This document shows, one piece after another, positions 7,120-33,842 of a stretch of 64,000 nucleotides of DNA. Made by a program: the position numbers and the translations under genes. The stretch lies in assembly GCA_963772455.1 (NCBI GenBank), contig CAVYXJ010000011.1, positions 32,001 through 96,000 on the forward strand, written 5' to 3'. The notes under the pieces are model-generated. The model was not told the DNA's origin and ran no database searches. It saw only the letters and a list, made by a program, of their open reading frames with translations. Origin of the DNA: Candidatus Bathyarchaeota archaeon (GTDB lineage: Archaea > Thermoproteota > Bathyarchaeia > Bathyarchaeales > Bathycorpusculaceae). Every line of letters begins with the position of its first letter. Within the stretch, counting starts at the first letter, position 1.

Positions 7120-9037
7120 TCAAAAAACAAATGAAAAAGTATTAGGAATAGATTTAGGAACAACCAATTCAGCAGCCGCCATCTATGAAGGCGGACATTC
7201 CACTGTAATCCCAAGCGCTGAAGGCCCAACTATGGCGGGAAAAATGTTTCCATCAGTTGTCGCCTTCACAAAAGATGGGCAGCTTCTAGTTGGAGAATCG
7301 GCAAAACGCCAAGCAACTACCAACAGTGAAGGAACCATTTTTGAAATAAAACGCAAAATGGGCACAGACTACAAAGTCAACATTTATGGAAAAGATTATA
7401 GTCCACAACAGATTTCAGCGTTCATTCTGCAGAAAATAAAGAAAGACGCCGAAACCTATCTTGGTGGATCCATAAGCAAAGCCGTAATTACGGTTCCAGC
7501 TCACTTCAACGACAACCAACGCCAAGCCACCAAAGATGCAGGTGAAATCGCAGGATTCCAAGTCATGCGTATTATCAATGAACCCACCGCGGCATGTCTT
7601 GCATACGGCATAGACAAAGTACAACAAGAAATGAAGATTCTCGTGTTCAGCTTCGGCGGAGGAACCCACGATGTGACTGTGATGGACTTTGGCAAAGGAG
7701 TCTTCCAAGTGCTCAGCACTAGCGGCGATACCCAATTAGGCGGAACAGATGTTGACAAAGCAGTAATGGACTATATTGTAGGCGAGTTCAAACGCCAAAC
7801 AGGCATAGAAGTTAGCGGCGACAAGATGGCAATGGCACGACTGAAAGAAGCTGCGGAAAAAGCAAAAATCGAACTCTCAACTCTAATGAGCACCGACATT
7901 GACCTACCATTCCTAACTGCAGATGCATCAGGACCAAAACACTTAAAATTATCATTAACCCGAACAAAACTGGAATCTTTAGCTCAACCCGTCGTTCAAA
8001 AAACCCAACGCACTCTAGAAAAAGCATTAGAGGACGCAAAATTGACGCCCCAAGGGATCGACAAAATAATTCTAATTGGCGGCATGACCAGAATGCCTCT
8101 AGTTCAGCGGTTCGTGGAGCAAATCTTGGGCAAAGCGCCAGAACGCGGAATTGACCCCATGGAAAGCGTTGCCATAGGTGCAGCAATCCAGGGCGCAGTC
8201 GTTTCTGGGGAAGTTACCGACCTTCTGTTACTTGATGTCACACCCTTATCGTTAGGGCTTGAGACTATGGGCGGCGTCATGACAAAAGTCATGGATAAAA
8301 ACACAACGATTCCAACAAAACGCAGCCAAGTCTTCACCACCGCTGCAGATTTCCAAACCGCGGTAACTATCCACGTACTCCAAGGCGAAAGACCAATGGC
8401 AGCAAACAATGTATCACTGGGCGAATTCAACTTAGTCGATTTGCCACCAGCGCCACGCGGGGTACCCCAAATAGAAGTGACCTTCGACATAGATGCAAAC
8501 GGAATACTAAACGTAACCGCCAAAGACCGAGCCACAGGAAAACAATCTAAAATTACTATATCAGCATCCACAAAATTGTCAAAAGAAGAGAAAGAAAAAC
8601 TAATCAAAGATGCAGAACAATTTGCCGAGCAAGACCGAAAAACTAAAGAAGACGCCGAAACACGCAACACCGCCGATAGCATGGTCTACACAGCTGAACG
8701 CACCAAATCTGACCTTGCAGGTAAACTCTCAACTGAAGAAACAGCTAAAATCGACACTGCAATTAACGAAGTCAAAAATGCGTTAGCAAGCAACGACATG
8801 GTACAAGTCAAAGCAAAATCTGATGCTCTACAAAAGGTTCTCCAAGAAGTAGGTACCAAAGTCTACCAACAAGCAGCAGCCGAAGCAGCTAAACAACAAG
8901 GACAACAGCCAGGCGATCAACAAGCAGGTCCACAAGGAGCGGGACCAGAAATGCCTCCAAGCGGCGGACCAGGACCTGAAGAGCAAGGTCCAGGCGAAGA
9001 AAAAGTAGTCGATTCCGAAGACTATAAGGTAAAATAA
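7112..9037 (+). CDS. dnaK: Chaperone DnaK (Hsp70)
   Basis: [62 protein letters not shown]. Confidence 0.98.
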
Positions 9038-9045
9038 AAACCAAA

Positions 9046-9070
9046 CTTTTCCTTTTTGTTTCAATTTTTT
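9046..9070 (+). terminator. Oligo-T archaeal terminator after dnaK
   Basis: CTTTTCCTTTTTGTTTCAATTTTTT directly after the stop codon. Confidence 0.45.
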
Positions 9071-9229
9071 AAAAAAAACTAAATTGCATTACAAATATAT
9101 CCACAAAATCAGTTTACAAAAAACCCTTCAACCCAAAAAAACAAGTGGAAAAAGGGGAAATGGTATAAAAGGCAGACTTGAGCATCCTATAAAAGACGTT
9201 AATAAAAATTTAATTTAGCGGTAAAACCA

Positions 9230-10348
9230 ATGGCTGAAAAACGAGATTATTATGAAGTTCTTAGCGTACAAAAAGGCGCATCCAAAGACGAAATCAAGGA
9301 CTCCTACCGTAAGTTAGCGATGCAATTTCATCCAGATCGCAACAAGGAGGCAGGAGCCGAAGAGAAATTCAAAGAAATCTCTGAAGCATATGCTGTTCTT
9401 AGCGACGACCAAAAACGACAACAATACGATCAGCTTGGCCATTCAGGTTTTGATCAAAGATATAAACAGGAAGATATTTTCCGAGGAGCAGACTTCGACT
9501 CTGTTTTCAGAGATATGGGTTTCGGAGATGTATTTCGAAGCATATTTGGTGGAGGCGGAGGCTTTGGCGGTTTTGGAGAAGAGCGCAACCGCGGACAGGA
9601 TCTCGCTTACAACCTTGAAATTACCCTCGAAGAAGCTGCCAGAGGTACCGAAAAAGAAATTGAAATCCCAAGGACCGAAAGATGCGAAGTATGCAATGGC
9701 TCTGGAGCAAATCCTGGCACTTCAGCTAAAATATGTCCGCGGTGTGGTGGCGAAGGTAAGATTCAGAACATGCGTAAAGCAGGCTTCGCTATGTACGTCC
9801 AAGTTACTGTTTGTCCATTGTGCAAAGGAAAAGGTAGACTAATAGAATCTCCATGCAACAACTGTCATGGCTCGGGATTAGTTCGAAGAAGACGCAAAAT
9901 CACCGTTAAAGTGCCTATGGGCATAGATGAGGGAACCCAACTTAGGCTACGAGGAGAAGGCGAAATGGCAGCTAACGACGGCGAACCAGGAGACCTCTAT
10001 GTTGTGGTTCACGTCAAGCAGAACCCCCAGTTTATGAGAGAAGGAGACGACCTCTGGCATGTAGCTTTCATCAATTACCCACAAGCTGCACTAGGCGCAG
10101 AAATTTCAATACCAACCTTAGATGGACCAACAACAATTAAGATCCATCCTGGAACGCAACCAGGCGAAACTATAACGATTAGAGGAAAAGGAATGCCAAG
10201 ATTCAGGGGTTACGGTAGAGGAGATTTACATGTACGCATAGGAGTTTCAGTTCCCGAGAAACTTACTGGTCCACAGAAAATACTTTTAGAACAATTAGCC
10301 AAAGAACTAGGTACAGATGTCTCAAAGAGCCATAAGTTCCGGCTGTAA
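9230..10348 (+). CDS. dnaJ: Chaperone DnaJ
   Basis: J domain with HPD, G/F region, four CxxCxGxG repeats, C-terminal domain. Confidence 0.97.
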   Translation: MAEKRDYYEVLSVQKGASKDEIKDSYRKLAMQFHPDRNKEAGAEEKFKEISEAYAVLSDDQKRQQYDQLGHSGFDQRYKQEDIFRGADFDSVFRDMGFGDVFRSIFGGGGGFGGFGEERNRGQDLAYNLEITLEEAARGTEKEIEIPRTERCEVCNGSGANPGTSAKICPRCGGEGKIQNMRKAGFAMYVQVTVCPLCKGKGRLIESPCNNCHGSGLVRRRRKITVKVPMGIDEGTQLRLRGEGEMAANDGEPGDLYVVVHVKQNPQFMREGDDLWHVAFINYPQAALGAEISIPTLDGPTTIKIHPGTQPGETITIRGKGMPRFRGYGRGDLHVRIGVSVPEKLTGPQKILLEQLAKELGTDVSKSHKFRL

Positions 10349-21970: not shown

Positions 21971-23341
21971 ATGCAAAGAATCCTCGAAGAAAAAACTAAG
22001 CTTAAGACCTTGAAGATTTCAGCTTTTGCAATATTTAGCGTAGTTATAATTGAAGTCACTTTAGGTTTACTGATCAATAGTTTAGCAATAATGAGTGATG
22101 GTTTGCATGCCCTATTAGATGCTGTTTCTAGCGTCATGTTGTTTTTTGCTGTACGCGCAGCAATGAAACCTCCAGATGAAGAGCATACTTACGGGCACGA
22201 AAAGTTCGAAACTATTGGCGGCTTAATCGGAGGCATAGTACTAATTGCTGTTGCATTCCTAATATTCTACGAATCTGCCCTACGTATTATAAGTCCGCCC
22301 CAACTTAATCCAGGAATAGAATATGCAGGTTTCATAGCAATAGGCTACGCTCTTTTCATTGCCTCTCTAAGAGTAACCGTTTTCAAAAAGTTCCAACACG
22401 TTCAAAGCACATCCATGAAAGCAGGATTTTACGATGCTATTTCAGATTTAAGCTCGACGCTGATAGCTCTTTTGGGTTTTGGCTTAGCTATTTTGGGATT
22501 TACAGGAGGAGATGCCTTTGCATCCATATTTCTTGGAGCTATGCTTACTTATTTAAGCTTAAAACTTGTAAAATTTAGCGTGATGGAACTAAGCGACACT
22601 GCATCAAAAGAACTTTTGGAAAAAACAAAAAAGATAATTCTTTCATGCGATGGAGTCGTTAAAACCGAGAACCTTAAAGTTCGAAAAGTAAGCTCAAAAG
22701 TCTTTGTTGATGCATCAGTGCAAGTTCCAACTCTAATGAGTTTGCAAGATGCACATTCTTTAGCTACAAAAATTGAAAGTTGCTTAAAAGATGGCTTCGG
22801 AAACGTTGACTCAACCATTCATATTGAACCTTCTGACAAAGAACACAAAATGGATCAGTTAGTCGAAAAATTAGCAATAGTTGATGGGGTCAAAGAGGTA
22901 CATGAAATTTCCACTATATATGTAGCTGGTAAACTATACATTACGTTACACGCGTATGTTAACCCTGAACTATCGGTTGAAGATGCTCATAAAATCGCTG
23001 AAGACATAGAACGTAGAATAAAAACTGAAATTATATCTCTTGAAAACGTTACTGTACATGTTGAACCTGCAGGAGTTGCGATCCCTGCAAGCGATGTCAA
23101 TGAAGGCGAACTTAGAGAAATTGTTAATGAAGTTGCTAATGGCATTATTGGCATCCTTCGCATTAAACGAGTGTTAACTTACGTTGCTGGAGGTAAACGT
23201 TACATCAACATAGATTGTTGCTTCACTAAACAAGTGCAGATTAAGGATGCTCACAAAATAGCCTCGCAGGTTGAAAAGGAAACGAAGGAACACTTTGCAA
23301 ATGCGGTAGTTACAGTTCACATTGAACCAGAATGCCCTTAA
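21971..23341 (+). CDS. Cation diffusion facilitator with three tandem C-terminal ZT_dimer domains
   Basis: SLAIMSDGLH, PPDEEHTYGHEKFE; three repeats each containing DAH and ending in (T/V)(I/V)H(I/V)EP. Confidence 0.92.
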   Translation: MQRILEEKTKLKTLKISAFAIFSVVIIEVTLGLLINSLAIMSDGLHALLDAVSSVMLFFAVRAAMKPPDEEHTYGHEKFETIGGLIGGIVLIAVAFLIFYESALRIISPPQLNPGIEYAGFIAIGYALFIASLRVTVFKKFQHVQSTSMKAGFYDAISDLSSTLIALLGFGLAILGFTGGDAFASIFLGAMLTYLSLKLVKFSVMELSDTASKELLEKTKKIILSCDGVVKTENLKVRKVSSKVFVDASVQVPTLMSLQDAHSLATKIESCLKDGFGNVDSTIHIEPSDKEHKMDQLVEKLAIVDGVKEVHEISTIYVAGKLYITLHAYVNPELSVEDAHKIAEDIERRIKTEIISLENVTVHVEPAGVAIPASDVNEGELREIVNEVANGIIGILRIKRVLTYVAGGKRYINIDCCFTKQVQIKDAHKIASQVEKETKEHFANAVVTVHIEPECP

Positions 23342-24507: not shown

Positions 24508-26736
24508 ATGCTATCTCGATCAGCTGTAGTTAAACTTAAAGCAATTTTAATAATTGACTTAATGATTGTAGGAGCAGCCGCAGGAGTTTATTTCTATCTT
24601 CAAAACGAAGGGATCCTAACCAGCGCGGCAAAACCAGCCACATTTACTCTAACAGATCTAACAATCAATCCGCTTGAAGCATACTTGGGCGATGCAGTTC
24701 AAATTTCTGTTAATTTAACAAATATTGGCGATTTAGAAGGCAACCAAACTATAAATCTTGAAATAAATAATACCGTCAAAGATACAACTAACGTTACTCT
24801 TGCGGCTAATTCAACTGAAATCGTGGAATTTACATACATTGAGACGGCTGAAGGAAACTATACCGTTAAAGTTGGCGATTTAACAGCTGCTTTGATCATT
24901 AAACCTGCTTTACCTGAATCAAGCAAAATTTTATTGTCTAATTTAATTAGTACTCCATATGAAGTCTGGGCTAATGAAAACGTTACAATTACTGCAAGCG
25001 CAGTGAACCCGTCAAGTGAATTAGACAAATTGACTGTAAAAATTATGATTGATGATGTAGTTGTGGGTACTCAAGTTATTTCCTTAGAAGCTGGAGCAAA
25101 TCAAATCGTTCAATTCACAATTAATGCATCGTCAGCAGCAGAAGGAAAGCACGTTGTAAAACTAAATACTCTTAAAGGCTCCTTTGTCATCGTAAAGACG
25201 GGTTATCATACACTTATTATTAATCGGTCAGGAGGCGGCTCCACTCCTCTTCCTTTTACGTTAAACGGGGAAAATCGTCAGACAGTTTACCAAGCGGTTT
25301 TACCGGTTGGAGAATACAGTATTTCTGTTCCAGATCCATTTAGTGTAGGGACTGGAGTGCTGGGTTTTACTTATTGGAGCGATGGCGTGAAAACTCCATC
25401 AAGAACTTTCACTTTAAGTGAACGACTGATACTTGTTGTTACTTATACTTTGATTAGCGGATATGCATCTTGTCCTTCACTTTATGTTTGGAATGGGACA
25501 GGGTATTCCTACGTTACAGATGTTTCAAACCCAGGATGGCTAGGATACATTAGCCACATTAACTCTGATGGAACAATTGTATTTGGTGGTGGAAACCCAT
25601 GGGATTACGTAAAAATAGACAAGAACTTATTGGCAACTAATAACGGCAATTTCGATTTAACTCTTGCTCAGCAATGGGACGAACTCTATTATTTAGATTC
25701 AGCATACATGATGGCAGTGGACCATCCTATTGGAACTAACGTTTACACATCGATGACAAACTATCTCAACAAAGGATCAACTGGTCAGATCTATACAGTA
25801 ACAAACGGCACACTCCTATCGCCGATAAACGCTACGAACGAACAAGGTAAAAACGTTTTAACTCAAATTCTATATAAGGATGGTTTATACACTCCAGGCA
25901 TAAATGGAGATCAAAGTTTATCTTGGAACAATATCACGATGAATCAATTAACTTTAGATCTGGGCAATTTGTCCTCTGCACCGCAAATAAAGCTTCTAAT
26001 GACTGGAATGGTTGATTGGGGTTTGGCAGATCCATATTATGCATGGATAAACAGTTTCAAAGAGGCCGCAGCCCAAGGACTTGTACCAAATGGGACCGAA
26101 ATTATGCCCGCACCATACATGGAAGTCAAAGATGTAAATGGAAACTGGATACGTGTTTCACAAGAGAGACAAATACCAATACCTTCAGATTACAATGCCA
26201 GAACATTCACCGTGGACTTAACGAATCTGTTTCCATCTAACGCAAATGATTGCCAAGTCCGACTTACCAATTTCTGGAACGTAACCTATGATTACATTGG
26301 AATAGATACAACCCTTCAACAAAATATAACAATACAAAAACTTATGCCAACTTCAGCAATACTCAGTCAAATGTGGGATACCCAATCTACCGCTTCAGGA
26401 GCTTTTACACGATATGGAGATGTCACACAACTGATTCAAAATGCTGATGACATATACGTCATTGGAAGACAAGGCGACCAAGTTAACATGCAATTCTCAA
26501 CTGCCAACATAGCACCGGTTGCCCAGAACATGGAACGGGACTACTTCTTTGTCGTGGCATGCTGGTTTAAAGATCCTCTTGGAAATTGGGGTTACGGATT
26601 CGACTTTACTGTTGACCCGATGCCGTTTATGGATATGAGTGGATTCCCCTACACACCTACAGAGAGCTACCCATACGATGCTGCACACTTAGAATATATG
26701 CAAGAGTATAACACTCGAATAATTACTGCTCCATAA
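24508..26736 (+). CDS. Membrane-anchored exported protein: two CARDB/Ig-like domains plus a C-terminal domain like that of bacterial FG-GAP/ASPIC-UnbV proteins
   Basis: N-terminal TM; VNLTNIGDLEG...GNYTVKVG; SCPSLYVWNG, AVDHP, FTRYGDV, PMPF..MSGFPY, EYNTR. Confidence 0.75.
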   Translation: MLSRSAVVKLKAILIIDLMIVGAAAGVYFYLQNEGILTSAAKPATFTLTDLTINPLEAYLGDAVQISVNLTNIGDLEGNQTINLEINNTVKDTTNVTLAANSTEIVEFTYIETAEGNYTVKVGDLTAALIIKPALPESSKILLSNLISTPYEVWANENVTITASAVNPSSELDKLTVKIMIDDVVVGTQVISLEAGANQIVQFTINASSAAEGKHVVKLNTLKGSFVIVKTGYHTLIINRSGGGSTPLPFTLNGENRQTVYQAVLPVGEYSISVPDPFSVGTGVLGFTYWSDGVKTPSRTFTLSERLILVVTYTLISGYASCPSLYVWNGTGYSYVTDVSNPGWLGYISHINSDGTIVFGGGNPWDYVKIDKNLLATNNGNFDLTLAQQWDELYYLDSAYMMAVDHPIGTNVYTSMTNYLNKGSTGQIYTVTNGTLLSPINATNEQGKNVLTQILYKDGLYTPGINGDQSLSWNNITMNQLTLDLGNLSSAPQIKLLMTGMVDWGLADPYYAWINSFKEAAAQGLVPNGTEIMPAPYMEVKDVNGNWIRVSQERQIPIPSDYNARTFTVDLTNLFPSNANDCQVRLTNFWNVTYDYIGIDTTLQQNITIQKLMPTSAILSQMWDTQSTASGAFTRYGDVTQLIQNADDIYVIGRQGDQVNMQFSTANIAPVAQNMERDYFFVVACWFKDPLGNWGYGFDFTVDPMPFMDMSGFPYTPTESYPYDAAHLEYMQEYNTRIITAP

Positions 26737-26859
26737 CCCTATTTTCTTCTTTAGAACTGATAAAGCCCTTTCAAAAATTGTCGAGCCAAGATTTATGTAA
26801 GATTTAAATGACATTATATTGTTATTTGCTCTAATCAACCTTCCAATGGGATCCCTTGA

Positions 26860-27561
26860 ATGTCGTTGATACCTGAAATCTCTAATCCTTATTTAGGAGC
26901 CTTTGCAGGGGGCTTGCTGTATGGATTAGTTGTTTGTACGGCATCGTGTCTTCCGATCGTTACAAGTTATATTGCAGGTGTTGGCGCTGGTTTTGGAAAG
27001 GGTGTAAAGATAACATTAATTTTCAATTCTGGAAGAGTTTTGGCTTACACTTTGATTGGCGCCTTAATAGGATTGTTTAGCGGTTTGTTTAGGCTTTTTA
27101 TTTCAGACTCTGCCATTTCTCCCTTTCAAATTTACTCTTCTCTCGCATTCGGAATAGTTACAATAATAATTGGCATTAGCATCTTTTTTAAAGCTAGAAA
27201 ACCATGCAACTGTAACGTTCAAGACGCAAAAAACATTATTACTACACGAAAAACAGGCAGATTCGGATTTGACATTGGCGCCTTTTCACTTGGTTTATCC
27301 AGAGGATTAATTGTTTGTCCACCATTGATTGCACTTTTAGTTTATTCGTTACCTTTCTCCAATCCTCTTGGAAGCATTGGAATAGCTGTATTATTTGGTT
27401 TAGGAACAACTCTTTCGCCAATTTTATTATTGGGCGGGGTTACTGGATGGCTTTTGAATAAGGCACCGCTTTTTCGGAAATGGATTTCGATAGCAGGCGG
27501 ATCGGTACTGATAGTTCTTGGAATAATCACAATGATTAGTTCATTAACTCAATTACCTTGA
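26860..27561 (+). CDS. DsbD_2/CcdA-like (TauE-annotated) membrane protein
   Basis: 6 TM, GLVVCTASCLP, FNSGRVLAY, GLIVCPPL, FGLGT. Confidence 0.85.
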   Translation: MSLIPEISNPYLGAFAGGLLYGLVVCTASCLPIVTSYIAGVGAGFGKGVKITLIFNSGRVLAYTLIGALIGLFSGLFRLFISDSAISPFQIYSSLAFGIVTIIIGISIFFKARKPCNCNVQDAKNIITTRKTGRFGFDIGAFSLGLSRGLIVCPPLIALLVYSLPFSNPLGSIGIAVLFGLGTTLSPILLLGGVTGWLLNKAPLFRKWISIAGGSVLIVLGIITMISSLTQLP

Positions 27562-27562
27562 C

Positions 27563-28579
27563 GTGGAAAATATGGCTGGAGAAATAATAGGAGACATATT
27601 GCGGCTAACAGTGCTTGGGGGATTAGGAGTAGCTGGGGTAATCTCAGTTTTAATTTGGAAGAAAAACATGTCCACTCGGGTAACTTTTCTTAGGTTTGTT
27701 ATCCAAGCTATCGCCGTAGCCGCTATATTCTATGTCCTATCTTATACGGTACCACCAGTAACTGGAGGATTGCCCCCAATCCTTTTTGTTTACTTGTTAA
27801 TTATAATATTGACAATGACCATATTTGTGGGTAGGTTTTTCTGTGGTTGGCTATGCCCTTTCGCACTTATAATGGACTTGGAAAGTCTCATAAGAAAAGC
27901 CCTTAAAATACCTCACCGAATCATTCCAGACAAACTAAACAAAATCCTTCACCAATCACGATATATCATATTGCTGTTCTTTTTGTTGCTACCGATATTG
28001 TTGTGGCTTTTAGATCCTCAGCCAATTATGGTTTCGCCTTTAATGGCTCAACTCTTAGCAGGTCACTTCCGCCCGTACAGCATATTACTTGACCCGCTTA
28101 TTCCTTTCATTGTACCATGGAAAGGTCAGATTATCATAGATCAAGTAAACTTGACATATCCTTATGCTCTCGACTTTATCACCTACTTAGGAGAAAACAT
28201 TGGGCAGGTCGTTGCCATAATATTTGTTGGTTTGACTTTGGCAGGTTCATTTATATTTAGACGCGTCTGGTGTAGATTTTGCCCAACTGGCGCTTCTTTG
28301 GCAGTTGTAAATAGATTTAAGGGTTTAAAATGGGCTCCTCTGCTTCATATTAACAAAGATGAGGAGAAATGCACTAAATGTGGAGTTTGCAAACGAGTTT
28401 GTCCAGTTCAAGTTAACGAAGTGTACGAGCAGAAGGGTGGAAAAATAAAAACCTCCCAATGTATGGTCTGTGCACGCTGCGTAGAAATGTGTCCTTATGA
28501 AGGCACCTTAAAGGTTAAGTTGGGTAACAAAACATTGTTTAAATCAAGAAACTGGTTGGAACAATCAAAAAGTGAATGA
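27563..28579 (+). CDS. NapH/MauN-like membrane polyferredoxin
   Basis: GRFFCGWLCPF and RVWCRFCPTG motifs, TM helices, CTKCGVCKRVCP and CMVCARCVEMCP. Confidence 0.9.
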   Translation: MENMAGEIIGDILRLTVLGGLGVAGVISVLIWKKNMSTRVTFLRFVIQAIAVAAIFYVLSYTVPPVTGGLPPILFVYLLIIILTMTIFVGRFFCGWLCPFALIMDLESLIRKALKIPHRIIPDKLNKILHQSRYIILLFFLLLPILLWLLDPQPIMVSPLMAQLLAGHFRPYSILLDPLIPFIVPWKGQIIIDQVNLTYPYALDFITYLGENIGQVVAIIFVGLTLAGSFIFRRVWCRFCPTGASLAVVNRFKGLKWAPLLHINKDEEKCTKCGVCKRVCPVQVNEVYEQKGGKIKTSQCMVCARCVEMCPYEGTLKVKLGNKTLFKSRNWLEQSKSE

Positions 28580-29919
28580 GGAAAATAAAAATGAATGAAA
28601 CTGTTGGAAAAAGATACATGCCTGAAGTAACCAGAAAAGAAATCGATGAACTCAAAACCACAATTAAAGCTGCTTCCCAAAAGGTAATGGCTGAAAACAT
28701 TGAACGCATGAAAAAAGCTGACCCTAAAAGACCTGAAGCCATGAAGTATTTTGATGAAATCTCAAACCTATTTGGCAAACGACAAGAGGAAATACAGGCT
28801 GAGAAAGAGAAGGGCAAAAAAGTCATCGGTTACATGTGTCTGTTTGCTCCAACAGAGTTAATTTTAGCAGCCGACGCCATTCCAGTCAGAGTTAATTCAG
28901 GATGGTATGACACGTCTAAGTTAGGAGACAGAGTTGTCCCCGTTGAGGTTTGCCCGGTAATACGATCAACAATCGGTGCAAAAATGATTGAGCTCTCACC
29001 TTTCCTTGAACAAAGCGATGCACTTATCAGTGTTCTAACTTGCGACGGCATGACCAAACTCGGTGAAATTTTAAGTGATTACAAAACTATTTGGGGAATG
29101 AATGTACCGCGAGTTAAAGATTCCACTCAGTCACTGCGCTTCTGGAATGACGAAATAAAACATATGAAAACTCAAATTGAACAGTTTACAGGAAACAAAA
29201 TTACACGTAAAAACCTCAAAGAAGCCATCGAAATGAGTCACAGAGCAACAAAAGCATTCCGTCGCCTACAAGAATTGCGTAAGGGATTACCTGTAATTAT
29301 GGGCAGAGATGCAATGCTGGTTAATCAAACATTTTTATGGGACGACAAACGCAGGTGGACAGAGAAAACCGAGGCTTTATGTGATGAATTAGAAAAAAGA
29401 GCGGAACGAAAAGATTGGGTTTGCCCGCCTGATACACCAAGAGTAATGATTACAGGCACACCTATGTTTTGGCCCGACAACTGGAAACTCCCAAGCCTAG
29501 TTGAAGAAGCAAATCCGCAAGGCATCATTGTTGCCGATGAACTATGTTCAGGTGAAAGAATCTTAAACGACCCTGTTGGCGTCGATGAATGGTCAATGGA
29601 TGATATGCTAAACGCAATTGGAGAACGCTATTTAATGGCATCAACTTGCCCATGCTTTACAAGCAAAGACGGAAACGAAGACAGAATCAATTGGCTCTTG
29701 AATAAAGTAAAAGAATGGAATGTTCAAGGAGTCATTTACTACGTGGTTCGAGGTTGCATGCTCTATGCAATGGAATACACACGCGTCAAGAAAGCTCTAG
29801 ATAAAATAAATATTCCAGTATACTACCTTGACACCGAATATACGCGTGAAGATGTTGGACAAATGAAAACCCGCGTTGAAGCATTTCTTGAAATGTTAAC
29901 TGCAAGAGTAGAAATGTAA
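28576..29919 (+). CDS. 2-hydroxyacyl-CoA dehydratase-fold protein, double-cubane cluster protein (DCCP)-like reductase
   Basis: RPEAMKYFD...KEKGKKVIGYMC, EVCPVIRS, TCDG, DELCSG, TCPCFT, RGCMLY, GQMKTRVEAFLEM. Confidence 0.85.
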   Translation: MRKIKMNETVGKRYMPEVTRKEIDELKTTIKAASQKVMAENIERMKKADPKRPEAMKYFDEISNLFGKRQEEIQAEKEKGKKVIGYMCLFAPTELILAADAIPVRVNSGWYDTSKLGDRVVPVEVCPVIRSTIGAKMIELSPFLEQSDALISVLTCDGMTKLGEILSDYKTIWGMNVPRVKDSTQSLRFWNDEIKHMKTQIEQFTGNKITRKNLKEAIEMSHRATKAFRRLQELRKGLPVIMGRDAMLVNQTFLWDDKRRWTEKTEALCDELEKRAERKDWVCPPDTPRVMITGTPMFWPDNWKLPSLVEEANPQGIIVADELCSGERILNDPVGVDEWSMDDMLNAIGERYLMASTCPCFTSKDGNEDRINWLLNKVKEWNVQGVIYYVVRGCMLYAMEYTRVKKALDKINIPVYYLDTEYTREDVGQMKTRVEAFLEMLTARVEM

Positions 29920-29928
29920 GGTGAAATT

Positions 29929-30714
29929 ATGATAACTGTTGGAATAGACCTTGGCACCCAAAGAGTACAAGTAGTTGTCTTAAAAGATGGTTCAGTAGCC
30001 TCTAGAGCTCAATTGCTATCGGGGTTCGATCCTACAAAAGCAGCTGAACAAGCTATAGATGAAGCGCTAAAAAAAGCAAACATTAAGTTTTCAGAAGTGG
30101 CAAGTTTTGCTGCAACAGGTTCAGCCGTAGATATGGCTCCTTATTCCGCTAGCACTGTAAGCATGATGAATGCAGATGCAAAAGCAGGCGTATTTTTATT
30201 TCCCAAAGCACGCACGATTATTGATGTCGGTGCAGAAGAGGCAAGAGCAGTAAAATGCGACGATAGAGGTGTAATGGTTGATTTTGTCGTCAACGAACGA
30301 TGTGCAGCAGGTGCAGGAGCATTTATCGAAGCGATGGCAAGAGCATTGGAAGTTAAATTGGAGGATATGGGTCCATTGGCACTTAAAGCAGAACGTGCAA
30401 GCCCCATTAATGCTTCATGTGTAATTTTTGGAGAATCAGATGTAGTTTCCCTCATACATCGTCAAGAATCCAAACCAGAAATTGCAAGGGCAGTTTACGA
30501 TGCGATGGCTGATCGAATTTCATCGATGGTTCACAGATTAGGCATAAACCCAGAAATCATTCTGGTCGGCGGTGTAGCAAAAGATGTCGGTTTTGTTGCA
30601 TCGTTAAATCGAAAACTTGGCGTTAACGTAATTATCCCTGACTACCCTGAATATGCAGGTGCTTTAGGTGCAGCAATTATCGCAGCAACGCGAGTAAAGG
30701 AGTCTTCAAAATGA
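29929..30714 (+). CDS. ASKHA-type ATP-dependent activase, BzdP/BcrD-like
   Basis: GIDLG, IIDVGAEEARA, NERCAAGAG, SCVIFGESD, GGVAKD. Confidence 0.88.
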   Translation: MITVGIDLGTQRVQVVVLKDGSVASRAQLLSGFDPTKAAEQAIDEALKKANIKFSEVASFAATGSAVDMAPYSASTVSMMNADAKAGVFLFPKARTIIDVGAEEARAVKCDDRGVMVDFVVNERCAAGAGAFIEAMARALEVKLEDMGPLALKAERASPINASCVIFGESDVVSLIHRQESKPEIARAVYDAMADRISSMVHRLGINPEIILVGGVAKDVGFVASLNRKLGVNVIIPDYPEYAGALGAAIIAATRVKESSK

Positions 30715-31622
30715 AGGAATTAGAAGCGGTAAAAGGTGTAGAATTTTGGCGTTGGAAAGAATATCACCGGATCATGCCAAACAAAAAATGGTCAAGTAAA
30801 GATCTAATCACAGCTGGAGTCGATGTTGGATCTGTAGGTTCTAAAGCAGCAGTAATGATAAACGGTGAGGCATATTCTTGGGGAATAACTCGCACTGGGT
30901 CTAACAGTCCTGAAAGCGCCACAAAAGCTCTTGAATACGCAATGGAAGGCACAGGACTCAAAGCAAGTGATATAAAATATATTGTCGGCACAGGTTATGG
31001 ACGAGTTAACGTGCCTATGGCAAATAAGGCTATAACTGAAATTGCCTGTCATGCAAAAGGTGCGAACTTTATTTGGGGTCCAAGCGTTCGGACAGTGTTG
31101 GATGTTGGTGGGCAGGACATAAAAGCAATTCGCATAGACGAAACAGGGCGAGTTGTCTCTTTTCTAATGAATGATAAATGTGCTGCTGGAACAGGAAGAG
31201 GTATGGAAGTATTTGCAGATTTGCTTCAGATTCCAATTGAAGAGATAGGTGATATTTCACTTAAAGTTGAAAAGGAACCTGAACCGGTGAGCTGCACGTG
31301 TGTAGCCTTCGCTAAAACAGAAGCAATGGGATTATTGCGAAAAGGTTGGTCTAAAGAAAAAGTCCTTGCTGCTTATACACGCGCTATGGCAGTTCGAATG
31401 GCTAACTTAATTAACAGAGTAGGCTTAGAGAGAGAACTGGTAGTGACCGGCGGTCAATCCAAGAACATTGGAATTGTAAGCAGAATAGAAGCCATTTTAG
31501 GAGTGAAGTGTCTTCCAATCCCTAAGTGGCGAGATGAAGGTGCATTAGATCCCATGGTTGCAGGCGCATTAGGTGCTGCGATTTTTGCTAAATCGCTTTA
31601 TGAAAAGTCTCAAAAATCATAG
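30711..31622 (+). CDS. ASKHA-type ATP-dependent activase, BzdQ/BcrA-like
   Basis: EFWRWKE extension, AGVDVGSV, GTGYGRVNVP, EIACHAKG, DVGGQD, NDKCAAGTGRGMEV. Confidence 0.88.
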   Translation: MKELEAVKGVEFWRWKEYHRIMPNKKWSSKDLITAGVDVGSVGSKAAVMINGEAYSWGITRTGSNSPESATKALEYAMEGTGLKASDIKYIVGTGYGRVNVPMANKAITEIACHAKGANFIWGPSVRTVLDVGGQDIKAIRIDETGRVVSFLMNDKCAAGTGRGMEVFADLLQIPIEEIGDISLKVEKEPEPVSCTCVAFAKTEAMGLLRKGWSKEKVLAAYTRAMAVRMANLINRVGLERELVVTGGQSKNIGIVSRIEAILGVKCLPIPKWRDEGALDPMVAGALGAAIFAKSLYEKSQKS

Positions 31623-31630
31623 GTGATTAA

Positions 31631-31918
31631 TTGATTACCTATTTTGGTTACTGTGACGGTTCAGGTGAATACTACATTGTCATCGATTCAAACAAATGCA
31701 ACGGCTGTGGCAAATGTGTAAAAAAATGTCCTCAAACTGCACTTAAACTTGAAACAGAGCTTATCGACCTTGAAGATAAAACAGTTGCCGTAATCAAAGA
31801 GGAACATAGAAAAAAAATTAAATATACTTGCGCTTCCTGCAAACCTGAAAAAGACAATACTCCTTGCATTTTAGCTTGTGAGAAAAAAGCCGTTAAATGT
31901 GTTTGGAACCCAAATTAA
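31631..31918 (+). CDS. Ferredoxin resembling those of bzd-type benzoyl-CoA reductase clusters
   Basis: FGYCDGSGEYYIVID..KCNGCGKCVKKCP, second site CASC...PCILAC. Confidence 0.85.
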   Translation: MITYFGYCDGSGEYYIVIDSNKCNGCGKCVKKCPQTALKLETELIDLEDKTVAVIKEEHRKKIKYTCASCKPEKDNTPCILACEKKAVKCVWNPN

Positions 31919-33290: not shown

Positions 33291-33842
33291 TTGGACAAGA
33301 ATCCGCAATCAAAAGATGATGCCCTCGAGGCGTTAGACTTTATCGTAAACGTTCTAAAAGAACATGAAAAAGACCTCGACAAACTCATCAATGAGCTTGC
33401 AACAGTCACCGAACAAATTGGCGACACGGGCGAATTAAGCGGCAAGGTTGATAAAGTTGAAACAAAAATAGAAACACTACAAAAAGAAGTAACAAACCTA
33501 ATTGGACAACTATCATCAAAATCCAAGGAAACATTGCCACTAGAAAATAACAAGATACAACAAGATGAAGTGAATGAAGTCGTTAAAACCTTCGACCATT
33601 CTGTAATTATTAACTGCAAACAATGGGAAGATTTCCTAAATTTGGCAGTGAAAGCTCAAACTCTATCTTTTAGCTATAATGAGGAAGAAAAGATTTTTCA
33701 AGCTAATGCAATTAAGGGTAACCAATTTATCACCTATAACGGTGAACTTCCGAAGCTTTCTTCTATTTTGAAGATGTGGCTGTCTAAACAGTTGGATATT
33801 CCAGACCGTAACATTTTGGAAGGAAAATTAACTGTAGGATAA
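33291..33842 (+). CDS. Hypothetical coiled-coil protein
   Basis: 183 aa, EALDFIVNVLKEHEKDLDKL heptads; GAGGAG upstream. Confidence 0.75.
   Translation: MDKNPQSKDDALEALDFIVNVLKEHEKDLDKLINELATVTEQIGDTGELSGKVDKVETKIETLQKEVTNLIGQLSSKSKETLPLENNKIQQDEVNEVVKTFDHSVIINCKQWEDFLNLAVKAQTLSFSYNEEEKIFQANAIKGNQFITYNGELPKLSSILKMWLSKQLDIPDRNILEGKLTVG

Follow-up and report, generated by a model that had tools for sequence, protein, structure and literature searches.

A conserved variant of the double-cubane protein system with a Bzd-type ATPase pair and membrane partners in Bathyarchaeia

Double-cubane proteins of the DCCP type are homodimers with an [8Fe-9S] cluster that carry out the ATP-dependent reduction of acetylene, azide or hydrazine. 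Their reductase, DCCP-R, is described as the homodimeric product of one gene encoded beside DCCP (PMC7317905; PMC9351452), and, though DCCPs are widespread, their natural function is given as unknown (PMC7317905; PMC9351452; PMC11971306). The seven-cysteine motif of the family comprises six cluster ligands and one cysteine near the opening above the cluster (PMC7317905; 10.1101/2022.07.06.499078), and the pair YjiM/YjiL is counted as DCCP class II (PMC7317905). In the DCCP review, each of these proteins has a single archerase gene as its partner, and neither "membrane" nor "heterodimer" occurs as a word (PMC7317905). An [8Fe-9S] cluster is also carried by BzdN of the bzd-type benzoyl-CoA reductases (PMC11971306). 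Herein, we describe seven genes, labelled g1 to g7 in their order from 24508 to 31918, of a 64,000-nucleotide stretch of DNA from a Candidatus Bathyarchaeota archaeon (contig CAVYXJ010000011.1, positions 32,001 to 96,000; the window). They represent a conserved modular variant of the DCCP system with a Bzd-type ATPase pair and conserved membrane partners, which is regularly misannotated. With a probability of roughly 0.8, we read the locus as encoding an ATP-driven, membrane-linked Fe-S reductase of very low potential, which would have been assembled from two modules of separate history and would act on a substrate other than benzoyl-CoA.

The energising module (g5 to g7) corresponds to the BzdP, BzdQ and ferredoxin that serve class I benzoyl-CoA reductases of the bzd type. 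The acceptor module (g2 to g4) combines a seven-cysteine double-cubane protein with a NapH-like polyferredoxin and a cysteine-lined DsbD_2 protein, and in Sulfurovum-like bacteria the same acceptor module is accompanied by a single, presumably homodimeric activase. The initial annotation of the locus had proposed such a module-swapped, membrane-linked reductase, and this proposal is now supported by the distribution of P and Q genes and by the synteny of g3 in two domains of life.

The catalytic subunit g4 had been taken for a DCCP-type protein from the outset, and profile scores, structures, cysteines and phylogeny all bear this out. On the double_cubane model NF040772 it scored 340.9 bits, as against 98.7 bits on bzdN (cut-off 453.8) and 60.9 on BcrC. 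The DCCP entries 6ENO and 7YYL of the PDB were matched at 273 bits (6ENO at E = 3.7e-80, residues 49-441 aligning onto 36-421), and the entries for BzdN (8S02_B), HadC and MbdN at 92, 69.5 and 54.7 bits, respectively. The DCCP motif is complete in g4, its seven cysteines standing at positions 88, 126, 156, 324, 358, 360 and 394. These are aligned with cysteines in 12 other g4 orthologues of our tree, in YjiM and in a canonical archaeal paralogue, and the listed variants of an 80-sequence alignment keep cysteine at the motif positions.

The tree of HGD-D proteins was built from 55 sequences of the loci gathered here, as a quick IQ-TREE run with support from the Shimodaira-Hasegawa-like approximate likelihood ratio test (SH-aLRT) only. 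Thirteen g4 orthologues, hereafter type B, composed a clade (SH-aLRT 99) whose sister was a Sulfurovum protein (99). Together with E. coli YjiM and the canonical archaeal paralogue, hereafter type A, they formed a clade of 17 rows (99), and BzdN and BzdO were placed elsewhere, apart from it. When type B was forced together with BzdN, a grouping named after the tree had been seen, the log-likelihood changed by -116.5 (p-AU 7e-51 in the approximately unbiased test). Judged by sequence, g4 belongs to the DCCP clade and is neither a BzdN nor a BzdO.

One might still take g4 and its neighbours for a 2-hydroxyacyl-CoA dehydratase, given that g4 matches the HGD-D fold PF06050 and that HadI is the best PDB match of g5 (169 bits). 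We give this idea next to no credence. Known dehydratases are described as heterodimers of two different HGD-D subunits with [4Fe-4S] clusters (PMC7317905), whereas one such subunit is encoded here, and it carries the seven-cysteine double-cubane set. The scores of g4 on HadC (103.9 bits, cut-off 700) and HadB (29.3 bits, cut-off 750) are far below threshold, and two ATPases with a dedicated ferredoxin suggest a stoichiometric supply of electrons rather than catalytic activation.

The genome from which the window derives (2.45 Mb, 92% complete; the window lies on its contig C11) holds only two HGD-D genes, both DCCP-type, so the annotated lack of a BzdN/BzdO pair extends to the whole assembly. 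The concern that g4 might have a partner elsewhere in the genome touches on a second HGD-D gene, which lies on another contig and encodes a further seven-cysteine DCCP and nothing BzdO-like.

This second gene is the type-A paralogue (contig C13 of G000, locus L005:7524-10677, minus strand; 457 bits on NF040772). It is flanked by a SelD gene (NF010705 332 bits, cut-off 291) and a DsrE/TusD-like gene, a LysR regulator adjoins, and there is no activase near this locus. Its reading frame is broken here into two that overlap (8643-9788 and 9559-9942 of L005), which may reflect a frameshift or an assembly error. The DsrE/DCCP/SelD order recurs in G300 and G318, whereas the locus of G354, a short one, did not show it. 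Such a neighbourhood matches the statistical association of DCCP with SelD reported in an earlier study (10.1101/2022.07.06.499078). The notion that the two ATPases of the operon serve the two DCCP paralogues was rejected, because the second paralogue is present in five of 11 genomes of the genus and both ATPases follow g4 wherever there is room.

We now turn to these ATPases, g5 and g6, which are 30% identical to each other and are the only activase-type ATPase genes in the window genome. On the BzdQ model TIGR03192, g6 scored 360.1 bits (cut-off 380.2) over model positions 9-292. Because the match starts at model position 9, the N-terminal FWRW extension belongs to the BzdQ model; the generic activase model matches g6 only from residue 33. 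NCBIfam has no BzdP model, and the P reference was therefore taken from the context of an archaeal bzd cluster, L124. Compared with this cluster, g5 is 46% identical to the protein in the P position (the motif IDVGAEE being common to both), g6 is 62% identical to BzdQ, and g7 is 50% identical to the ferredoxin (L124:12171-12455). In the activase tree of 101 rows, g6 lies within a Q clade (SH-aLRT 100) in which six Q proteins are Bzd-linked and 13 DCCP-linked, and to which one fusion protein also belongs by its C-terminal half. Both kinds of P protein, g5 included, fall in a 57-row clade with mostly GA-type motifs (95), and each of the two kinds, Bzd-linked and DCCP-linked, is monophyletic (support values 99 and 93). 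The annotated resemblance to BzdP and BzdQ stood for g6, by its clade and its identity to BzdQ, and for g5, by its identity to the archaeal P protein and its GAEE, a motif that MbdP lacks.

The phosphate-2 motif reads GGQD in HadI, MbdQ, HgdC and DCCP-R, GGQT in MbdP and GAEE in g5. Among Bathyarchaeia, D[VI]GAEEAR was found in all 78 P orthologues and DVGGQDIK in all 76 Q orthologues, and the two cluster cysteines are kept in both subunits. When g5 relatives were drawn from a library of 1.84 billion proteins (the best 150 cluster representatives), the 101 single-domain ones among them comprised 65 GA-type, 24 GGQD and 11 other motifs, plus one sequence uncovered by the alignment. Natural tandem P-Q fusions were also found, namely P0123 (571 amino acids, GAED then GGQD) and P0124 (604 amino acids, GAEE then GGQD). 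The C-terminal half of P0123 joins the DCCP-linked Q clade (SH-aLRT 95), and its N-terminal half branches next to the DCCP-linked P clade, where the fork is open (83). Such fusions argue for a P:Q dimer of 1:1 stoichiometry, and from these sequences we infer a P:Q heterodimer with a P site that would be catalytically weakened, having GAEE instead of GGQD.

Other families, of this order and elsewhere in the phylum, do have genuine bzd clusters, which came to light in a survey of 401 genomes as loci where P- and Q-like genes stand behind another HGD-D pair. The one at L124:4665-14987 (G228, of the same order but another family) exceeds the cut-offs for Oah (535.7 bits, cut-off 464.45), Had (456.2, 338.65), BzdO (544.6, 448.6) and BzdQ (384.1, 380.2), with BzdN slightly below (445.1, 453.8). 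It further encodes the P-position ATPase, a ferredoxin of 94 amino acids and a large NAD(P)-binding Fe-S flavoprotein. All six archaeal bzd loci (L124, L128, L148-L151) show the order N-O-P-Q with a matching ferredoxin downstream of Q, directly after it in five and ~3.7 kb further on in L128; homologues of g2 and g3 were not detectable in these loci with the models used. Plasmid clusters of Rhizobium and Azoarcus were also tried as Bzd references and set aside, their subunits scoring far under the Bzd cut-offs.

To describe how the modules are distributed, we used the same sample of 401 genomes. Relatives within it cannot be counted as independent, and the numbers are therefore given as a pattern and not as a statistic. 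Type-B DCCP was present in 25 genomes (NF040772 323.7-362.2 bits, the next match having 258.9), and BzdO in eight at E <= 1e-40, seven of them above the cut-off. Q-type genes (E <= 1e-80) occurred once each in 34 genomes: 25 are co-oriented with a type-B DCCP gene ~0.8 kb away, eight are in BzdO genomes, where P and Q follow BzdO in the loci fetched from six of the eight, and one (G348) is located at a contig start. No genome of the 401 had both type-B DCCP and BzdO as Q partners. The P/Q/ferredoxin set serves either BzdNO or DCCP, and never both in one sampled genome.

This distribution bears directly on the names given to such operons. The initial annotation had warned that automated pipelines could mislabel the system as benzoyl-CoA reductase, and the error is real: the Joint Genome Institute (JGI) name of the g4 gene is BcrC/BadD/HgdB. 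In the phylum sample, ten matches exceeded the cut-off of TIGR03192, which is meant as an "equivalog" of BzdQ, and eight of these are DCCP-linked, in genomes without BzdO. Thus, the model does not separate the DCCP and BzdNO contexts, and pipelines will name such genes "benzoyl-CoA reductase, bzd-type, subunit Q"; with genuine bzd clusters occurring in the same order, BzdO is needed to tell both contexts apart. The paper on Bathyarchaeum tardum reports three adjacent genes BcrACD, no detectable BcrB and inhibition of growth by benzoate, and in its supplement BcrA, BcrD and BcrC have accessions that follow one another. In its order, that succession would fit g6, g5 and g4. A 2025 review names benzoyl-CoA reductase as one of the genes for aromatic degradation in Bathyarchaeia.

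Could these labels be right after all, the operon encoding a class I benzoyl-CoA (aryl-CoA) reductase that is either incomplete or divergent, as the KEGG-style names BcrC, BcrD and BcrA imply? Apart from the labels themselves, in the JGI names and the B. tardum paper, one could point to g6, which comes close to the BzdQ cut-off, to its orthologues in eight genomes that exceed it, and to the genuine bzd clusters of the same archaeal order. We nevertheless hold this to be extremely improbable. The window genome has neither BzdO (the best TIGR03191 match, 24.9 bits, is g4 itself) nor a BcrB-type active-site subunit, and no Oah ring hydrolase was found in it (TIGR03200, E <= 1e-5). BzdO is absent from all 25 genomes with type-B DCCP, g4 sits in the DCCP clade far below the bzdN cut-off, and benzoate inhibited the growth of B. 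tardum, a relative in culture. It may be that some Thermoproteota truly reduce benzoyl-CoA, while the family of the window does not.

Beyond the ATPases, the neighbourhood of g4 is strongly conserved. In 80 loci of other Bathyarchaeia species, searched by tblastn, g4 and g5 were each present in 80, g6 in 77 (the remaining three being cross-matches on contigs that end after g5) and g7 in 76. Two different ATPase genes follow g4 in those 77 loci. A homologue of g3 was found in 77 loci, in 73 of them co-oriented and directly upstream of g4, the other four matches being an opposite-strand paralogue of 38-39% identity; g2 was present in 60 and g1 in 58. The membrane genes are conserved neighbours in related genomes. 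Gaps of at most 20 nucleotides separate g3 from g4 in 61 of 63 loci (median -4), g4 from g5 in 74 of 76, g5 from g6 in 71 of 74, g6 from g7 in 41 of 50 and g2 from g3 in 32 of 46, and g1 from g2 in only two of 37, where the median gap is 123 nucleotides. The loosest member is thus g1, and in 13 loci whose set of open reading frames (at least 70% query coverage) holds no g2 it stands directly before g3. Close relatives of g4 carry the titles Bathyarchaeota or Bathyarchaeia, and the full operon was also found in two genomes (G023 and G171) from another class of the same phylum.

A counterpart of the acceptor module exists in bacteria. On a plasmid of Sulfurovum mangrovi (NZ_CP087125, L116), genes for DsbD_2, a Fer4_5 protein of 722 amino acids, a NapH-like protein, a DCCP-like protein (NF040772 321.9 bits) and one activase follow each other in this order with overlapping junctions, flanked by TonB-dependent receptors and an RND pump. 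The g2 homologue of this plasmid is 28% identical to g2. We gathered 80 metagenome loci (L154-L233) with proteins 52-91% identical to the Sulfurovum DCCP. A NapH-like gene is directly upstream in 62 of the 63 with room, one activase is directly downstream in 67 of the 69 with room, DsbD_2 is present in 48 of the 80, and none of the 80 has two activases. Since g2 and g3 were not detectable in the bzd loci with the models used, and their counterparts are present beside bacterial DCCP with its single activase, the membrane proteins travel with this DCCP clade and not with the type of ATPase. Within Sulfurovum, a genus in which the bacterial version occurs, a strain in culture has been sequenced.

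Around the bacterial clusters, matches to TonB-dependent receptors were seen in 46 of the 80 loci and to an RND efflux permease in 27. Toward its C-terminal end, the 722-amino-acid protein bears a faint resemblance to DUF4198 (E 0.00066, short of the cut-off of Pfam), and no similarity was found between this protein and g1. The bacterial neighbours hint at an imported substrate, perhaps a metal-bound one.

Given these counts, we find it very improbable that g1 to g3 are unrelated neighbours of a functional unit consisting of g4 to g7 only. Such a view could draw on the 123 nucleotides that separate g1, on the absence of g1 and of g2, each from a quarter or so of the loci, and on the want of any fusion joining g3 to g4. 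On the other side, the stop of g3 overlaps the start of g4 by 4 nucleotides, this junction is tight in nearly all archaeal loci (61/63 with a gap of at most 20 nucleotides), and the NapH-like/DCCP junction recurs in bacteria (62/63 loci with room), with DsbD_2 in 48/80.

As for the membrane proteins themselves, g1 has a hydrophobic N-terminal anchor, CARDB repeats and a C-terminal domain of ~430 amino acids without known family. An Atlas search with residues 310-742 brought up nothing beyond clusters of hypothetical proteins (best score 0.90), with a weak UnbV_ASPIC lead (0.81). In g2, the transmembrane cysteine motifs CTASCLP and CPPL are kept in the commonest listed variants of 56 aligned sequences, and there is no thioredoxin-like gene within the operon. 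The Prokaryotic Genome Annotation Pipeline (PGAP) labels the Sulfurovum homologue of g2 as a TauE/SafE exporter, and g2 might conceivably act as a transporter. In g3, the motifs CX3CP, CX2CP and two CX2CX2CX3C are kept in the commonest listed variants of 69 aligned sequences. On the NapH/MauN model TIGR02163, g3 scored 87.2 bits against a cut-off of 213. By eye, the positive-inside rule would put the Fe-S domain on the cytoplasmic side together with the two CXnCP motifs, and no path across the membrane is evident.

How such a system might work can be sketched by homology with DCCP:DCCP-R and BzdNOPQ, as presented in PMC9351452 and PMC11971306. Reduced ferredoxin g7 would pass an electron to a [4Fe-4S] cluster bridging the P:Q heterodimer. 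Hydrolysis of ATP, probably mainly at the canonical Q site, as the P site carries GAEE instead of GGQD, would then drive the electron uphill onto the double cubane of a g4 dimer, presumably a homodimer with [8Fe-9S] clusters. Finally, the double cubane would reduce a substrate other than benzoyl-CoA. The reaction would be tied to the membrane via g3 and often also via g2 and the surface protein g1, and g3 may feed electrons in, take them out (as BzdO does from BzdN) or anchor the enzyme near a transported substrate. We lean toward g3 acting with or after g4, because the ferredoxin accompanies P and Q in bzd clusters without g3, and g3 accompanies DCCP in bacteria without a cluster ferredoxin. 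We infer the cluster types, the hetero- and homodimers, the electron path and the role of the membrane proteins by analogy.

A different division of labour is possible, although we consider it unlikely. Here the double cubane would not be catalytic but would store ATP-energised electrons, as in BzdN, and pass them to the NapH-like protein in the place of BzdO, which would drive a hard reduction at or across the membrane, the target being, for instance, a metal chelate or the cysteines of DsbD_2, in the service of the cell surface. Indeed, the NapH-like gene follows the DCCP clade and not the type of ATPase, did not turn up when its model was run on the bzd loci and accompanies the bacterial single-activase version in 62/63 loci with room. 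The double cubane of BzdN has itself been proposed to have become a cofactor of electron transfer and storage (PMC11971306). The TonB-dependent receptor matches (46/80) and RND pumps (27/80) of the bacterial loci, and a CDF cation transporter upstream in 35 of the 80 archaeal ones, also agree with work for the cell surface. Nevertheless, g4 keeps the seventh cysteine, which in classes I and II, the catalytic ones, is described as lying close to the opening over the cluster (PMC7317905); g3, as oriented by eye, offers no evident path across the membrane; electrons of about -600 mV passed into ordinary [4Fe-4S] clusters would waste the invested ATP; and no NapH-DCCP fusion was found among the longer proteins.

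It is tempting to go further and suppose that electrons of the double cubane enter the membrane polyferredoxin and a cysteine-lined channel, so that reductions beyond the reach of ordinary ferredoxin could be carried out at or beyond the cytoplasmic membrane. An example would be the release, or a redox change, of the metal in a very stable imported chelate, and the CARDB surface protein in archaea and the TonB-dependent receptors in bacteria would be the capture devices. We regard this as a doubtful speculation. If true, it would be the first physiological role for double-cubane proteins and a new bioenergetic principle, namely, ATP-driven electron export below ferredoxin potentials.

Several observations weigh against our preferred explanation, that of a DCCP-type reductase energised by a Bzd-type set and linked to the membrane. 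The 340.9 bits of g4 are slightly below the NF040772 cut-off of 350, and of the type-B matches found in the 401 genomes only three of 25 reach it. The DCCP-linked and Bzd-linked P proteins lie within one 49-row clade (SH-aLRT 99) without being resolved as sisters. The solved bacterial MbdP (GGQT) matches g5 at 110.7 bits, below MbdQ (158.7) and HadI (169), and because of this mismatch the P orthology of g5 rests on the archaeal clusters. With the window genome 92% complete, the absence of BzdO and Oah from it is not absolute. Finally, about one in four of the 80 loci lacks g2, about one in four lacks g1, and no NapH-HGD-D fusion was seen among longer proteins: none of five longer g3 relatives, NapH-like proteins with an unassigned N-terminal extension, contains PF06050 or DsbD_2.

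The coordinates of the operon are collected in Table 1. All seven open reading frames were found where the initial annotation had drawn them, co-oriented on the plus strand, with spacings from g1 to g7 of 123 nucleotides, 1 nucleotide, a 4-nucleotide overlap, 9 nucleotides, a 4-nucleotide overlap and 8 nucleotides, so that the last six genes are, exactly as described, overlapping or separated by at most 9 nucleotides. Pfam and NCBIfam agree with the families it had named (CARDB, DsbD-like, NapH-like, dehydratase-fold, two activases and ferredoxin), and the motifs that it quoted, RPEAMKYFD, KGKKVIGYMC, TCDG, ELCSG, CPC, GC, DVGAEE and FWRW, are all present.

Table 1. Genes of the operon and two looser neighbours (positions in the window).
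Gene	Coordinates	Strand	Product and matches
g1	24508..26736	+	surface protein, 742 aa (amino acids); CARDB PF07705, 36.4 bits
g2	26860..27561	+	DsbD_2/CcdA-like polytopic membrane protein; PF13386 82.3 bits, PF02683 41.1 bits
g3	27563..28579	+	NapH-like membrane polyferredoxin; Fer4_5 PF12801 53.7 bits, dicluster domain
g4	28576..29919	+	seven-Cys DCCP-clade "type B" subunit; HGD-D PF06050 318 bits
g5	29929..30714	+	BcrAD_BadFG ATPase, BzdP-type ("delta-like") archerase subunit; TIGR00241 192.8 bits
g6	30711..31622	+	BcrAD_BadFG ATPase, BzdQ-type ("alpha-like") archerase subunit; TIGR03192 360.1 bits
g7	31631..31918	+	ferredoxin, 95 aa, nine cysteines; Fer4 families
	21971..23341	+	CDF cation-efflux transporter
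	33291..33842	+	coiled-coil-like protein, 183 aa

Two looser neighbours accompany the operon. The cation-efflux transporter, which has a duplicated C-terminal domain, is located upstream in 35 of the 80 loci, and the coiled-coil-like protein, which has no known family, downstream in 52. Records titled Methanocella sp. and Candidatus Limnocylindrales (L042 and L074; genomes G401 and G402) also carry the operon, with g4 76-85% identical, and each of the two genomes holds a type-A plus a type-B DCCP, the same pair as in the genus of the window. Mis-binning, mislabelling or recent transfer could be the cause. Elsewhere in Thermoproteota, divergent HGD-D gene pairs adjoin in loci L122, L123, L125, L126, L127 and L129, with no activase within the fetched stretches. 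In several of these pairs the first protein still has five or six cysteines of the double-cubane set, and in G228 one pair lies ~10 kb from the bzd cluster. Such pairs may be further P/Q-dependent enzymes.

We found no description of the P/Q-DCCP pairing or of the membrane link in the literature searched. No title or abstract on Bathyarchaeia or a membrane partner appeared among the matches listed for the double-cubane literature since 2019, and a search joining "double-cubane" with "Bathyarchae" brought up only the topic of methyl-coenzyme M reductase (MCR) activation. We believe the locus to be of interest for several reasons. A DCCP variant with a conserved membrane and uptake context in two domains gives concrete hypotheses on DCCP function, and a P/Q/ferredoxin set that serves BzdNO or DCCP bears on the evolution of the BCR/HAD/DCCP family. 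Moreover, a recurring misannotation is corrected, by which genes of this operon are taken as evidence for anaerobic aromatic degradation in Bathyarchaeia, a group of abundant sediment archaea.

Overall, four described or sequenced systems invite comparison. DCCP/DCCP-R of Carboxydothermus hydrogenoformans shares with the window operon the seven-cysteine motif and an archerase-type ATPase partner with two cluster cysteines. Unlike it, the window operon has two ATPase genes, of the BzdP and BzdQ types, a dedicated ferredoxin, and tightly linked NapH-like and DsbD_2 membrane genes. E. coli YjiM/YjiL is similar in that YjiM has the seven cysteines, belongs to the same 17-row clade and is above the NF040772 cut-off in control genomes; however, YjiM has 383 amino acids and is 29% identical, YjiL is a single activase, and there are no membrane partners in the locus. 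The Sulfurovum cluster resembles the archaeal operon in its DsbD_2, NapH-like and DCCP-like genes with overlapping junctions. It differs in having one activase with a canonical GGQD, no cluster ferredoxin and the extra 722-amino-acid Fer4_5 protein, in the six of seven cysteines of its DCCP, and in the TonB receptor and RND matches of many loci. In BzdNOPQ with its ferredoxin, finally, P, Q and ferredoxin are homologous to g5, g6 and g7, stand in the same gene order at 46, 62 and 50% identity, and share the GAEE of the P site (in archaea) and the N-terminal extension of Q. Unlike the bzd loci, which have no membrane genes, the window operon lacks BzdO and a BzdN orthologue and has a single DCCP-clade subunit in their stead, in a genome without a ring-hydrolase gene.

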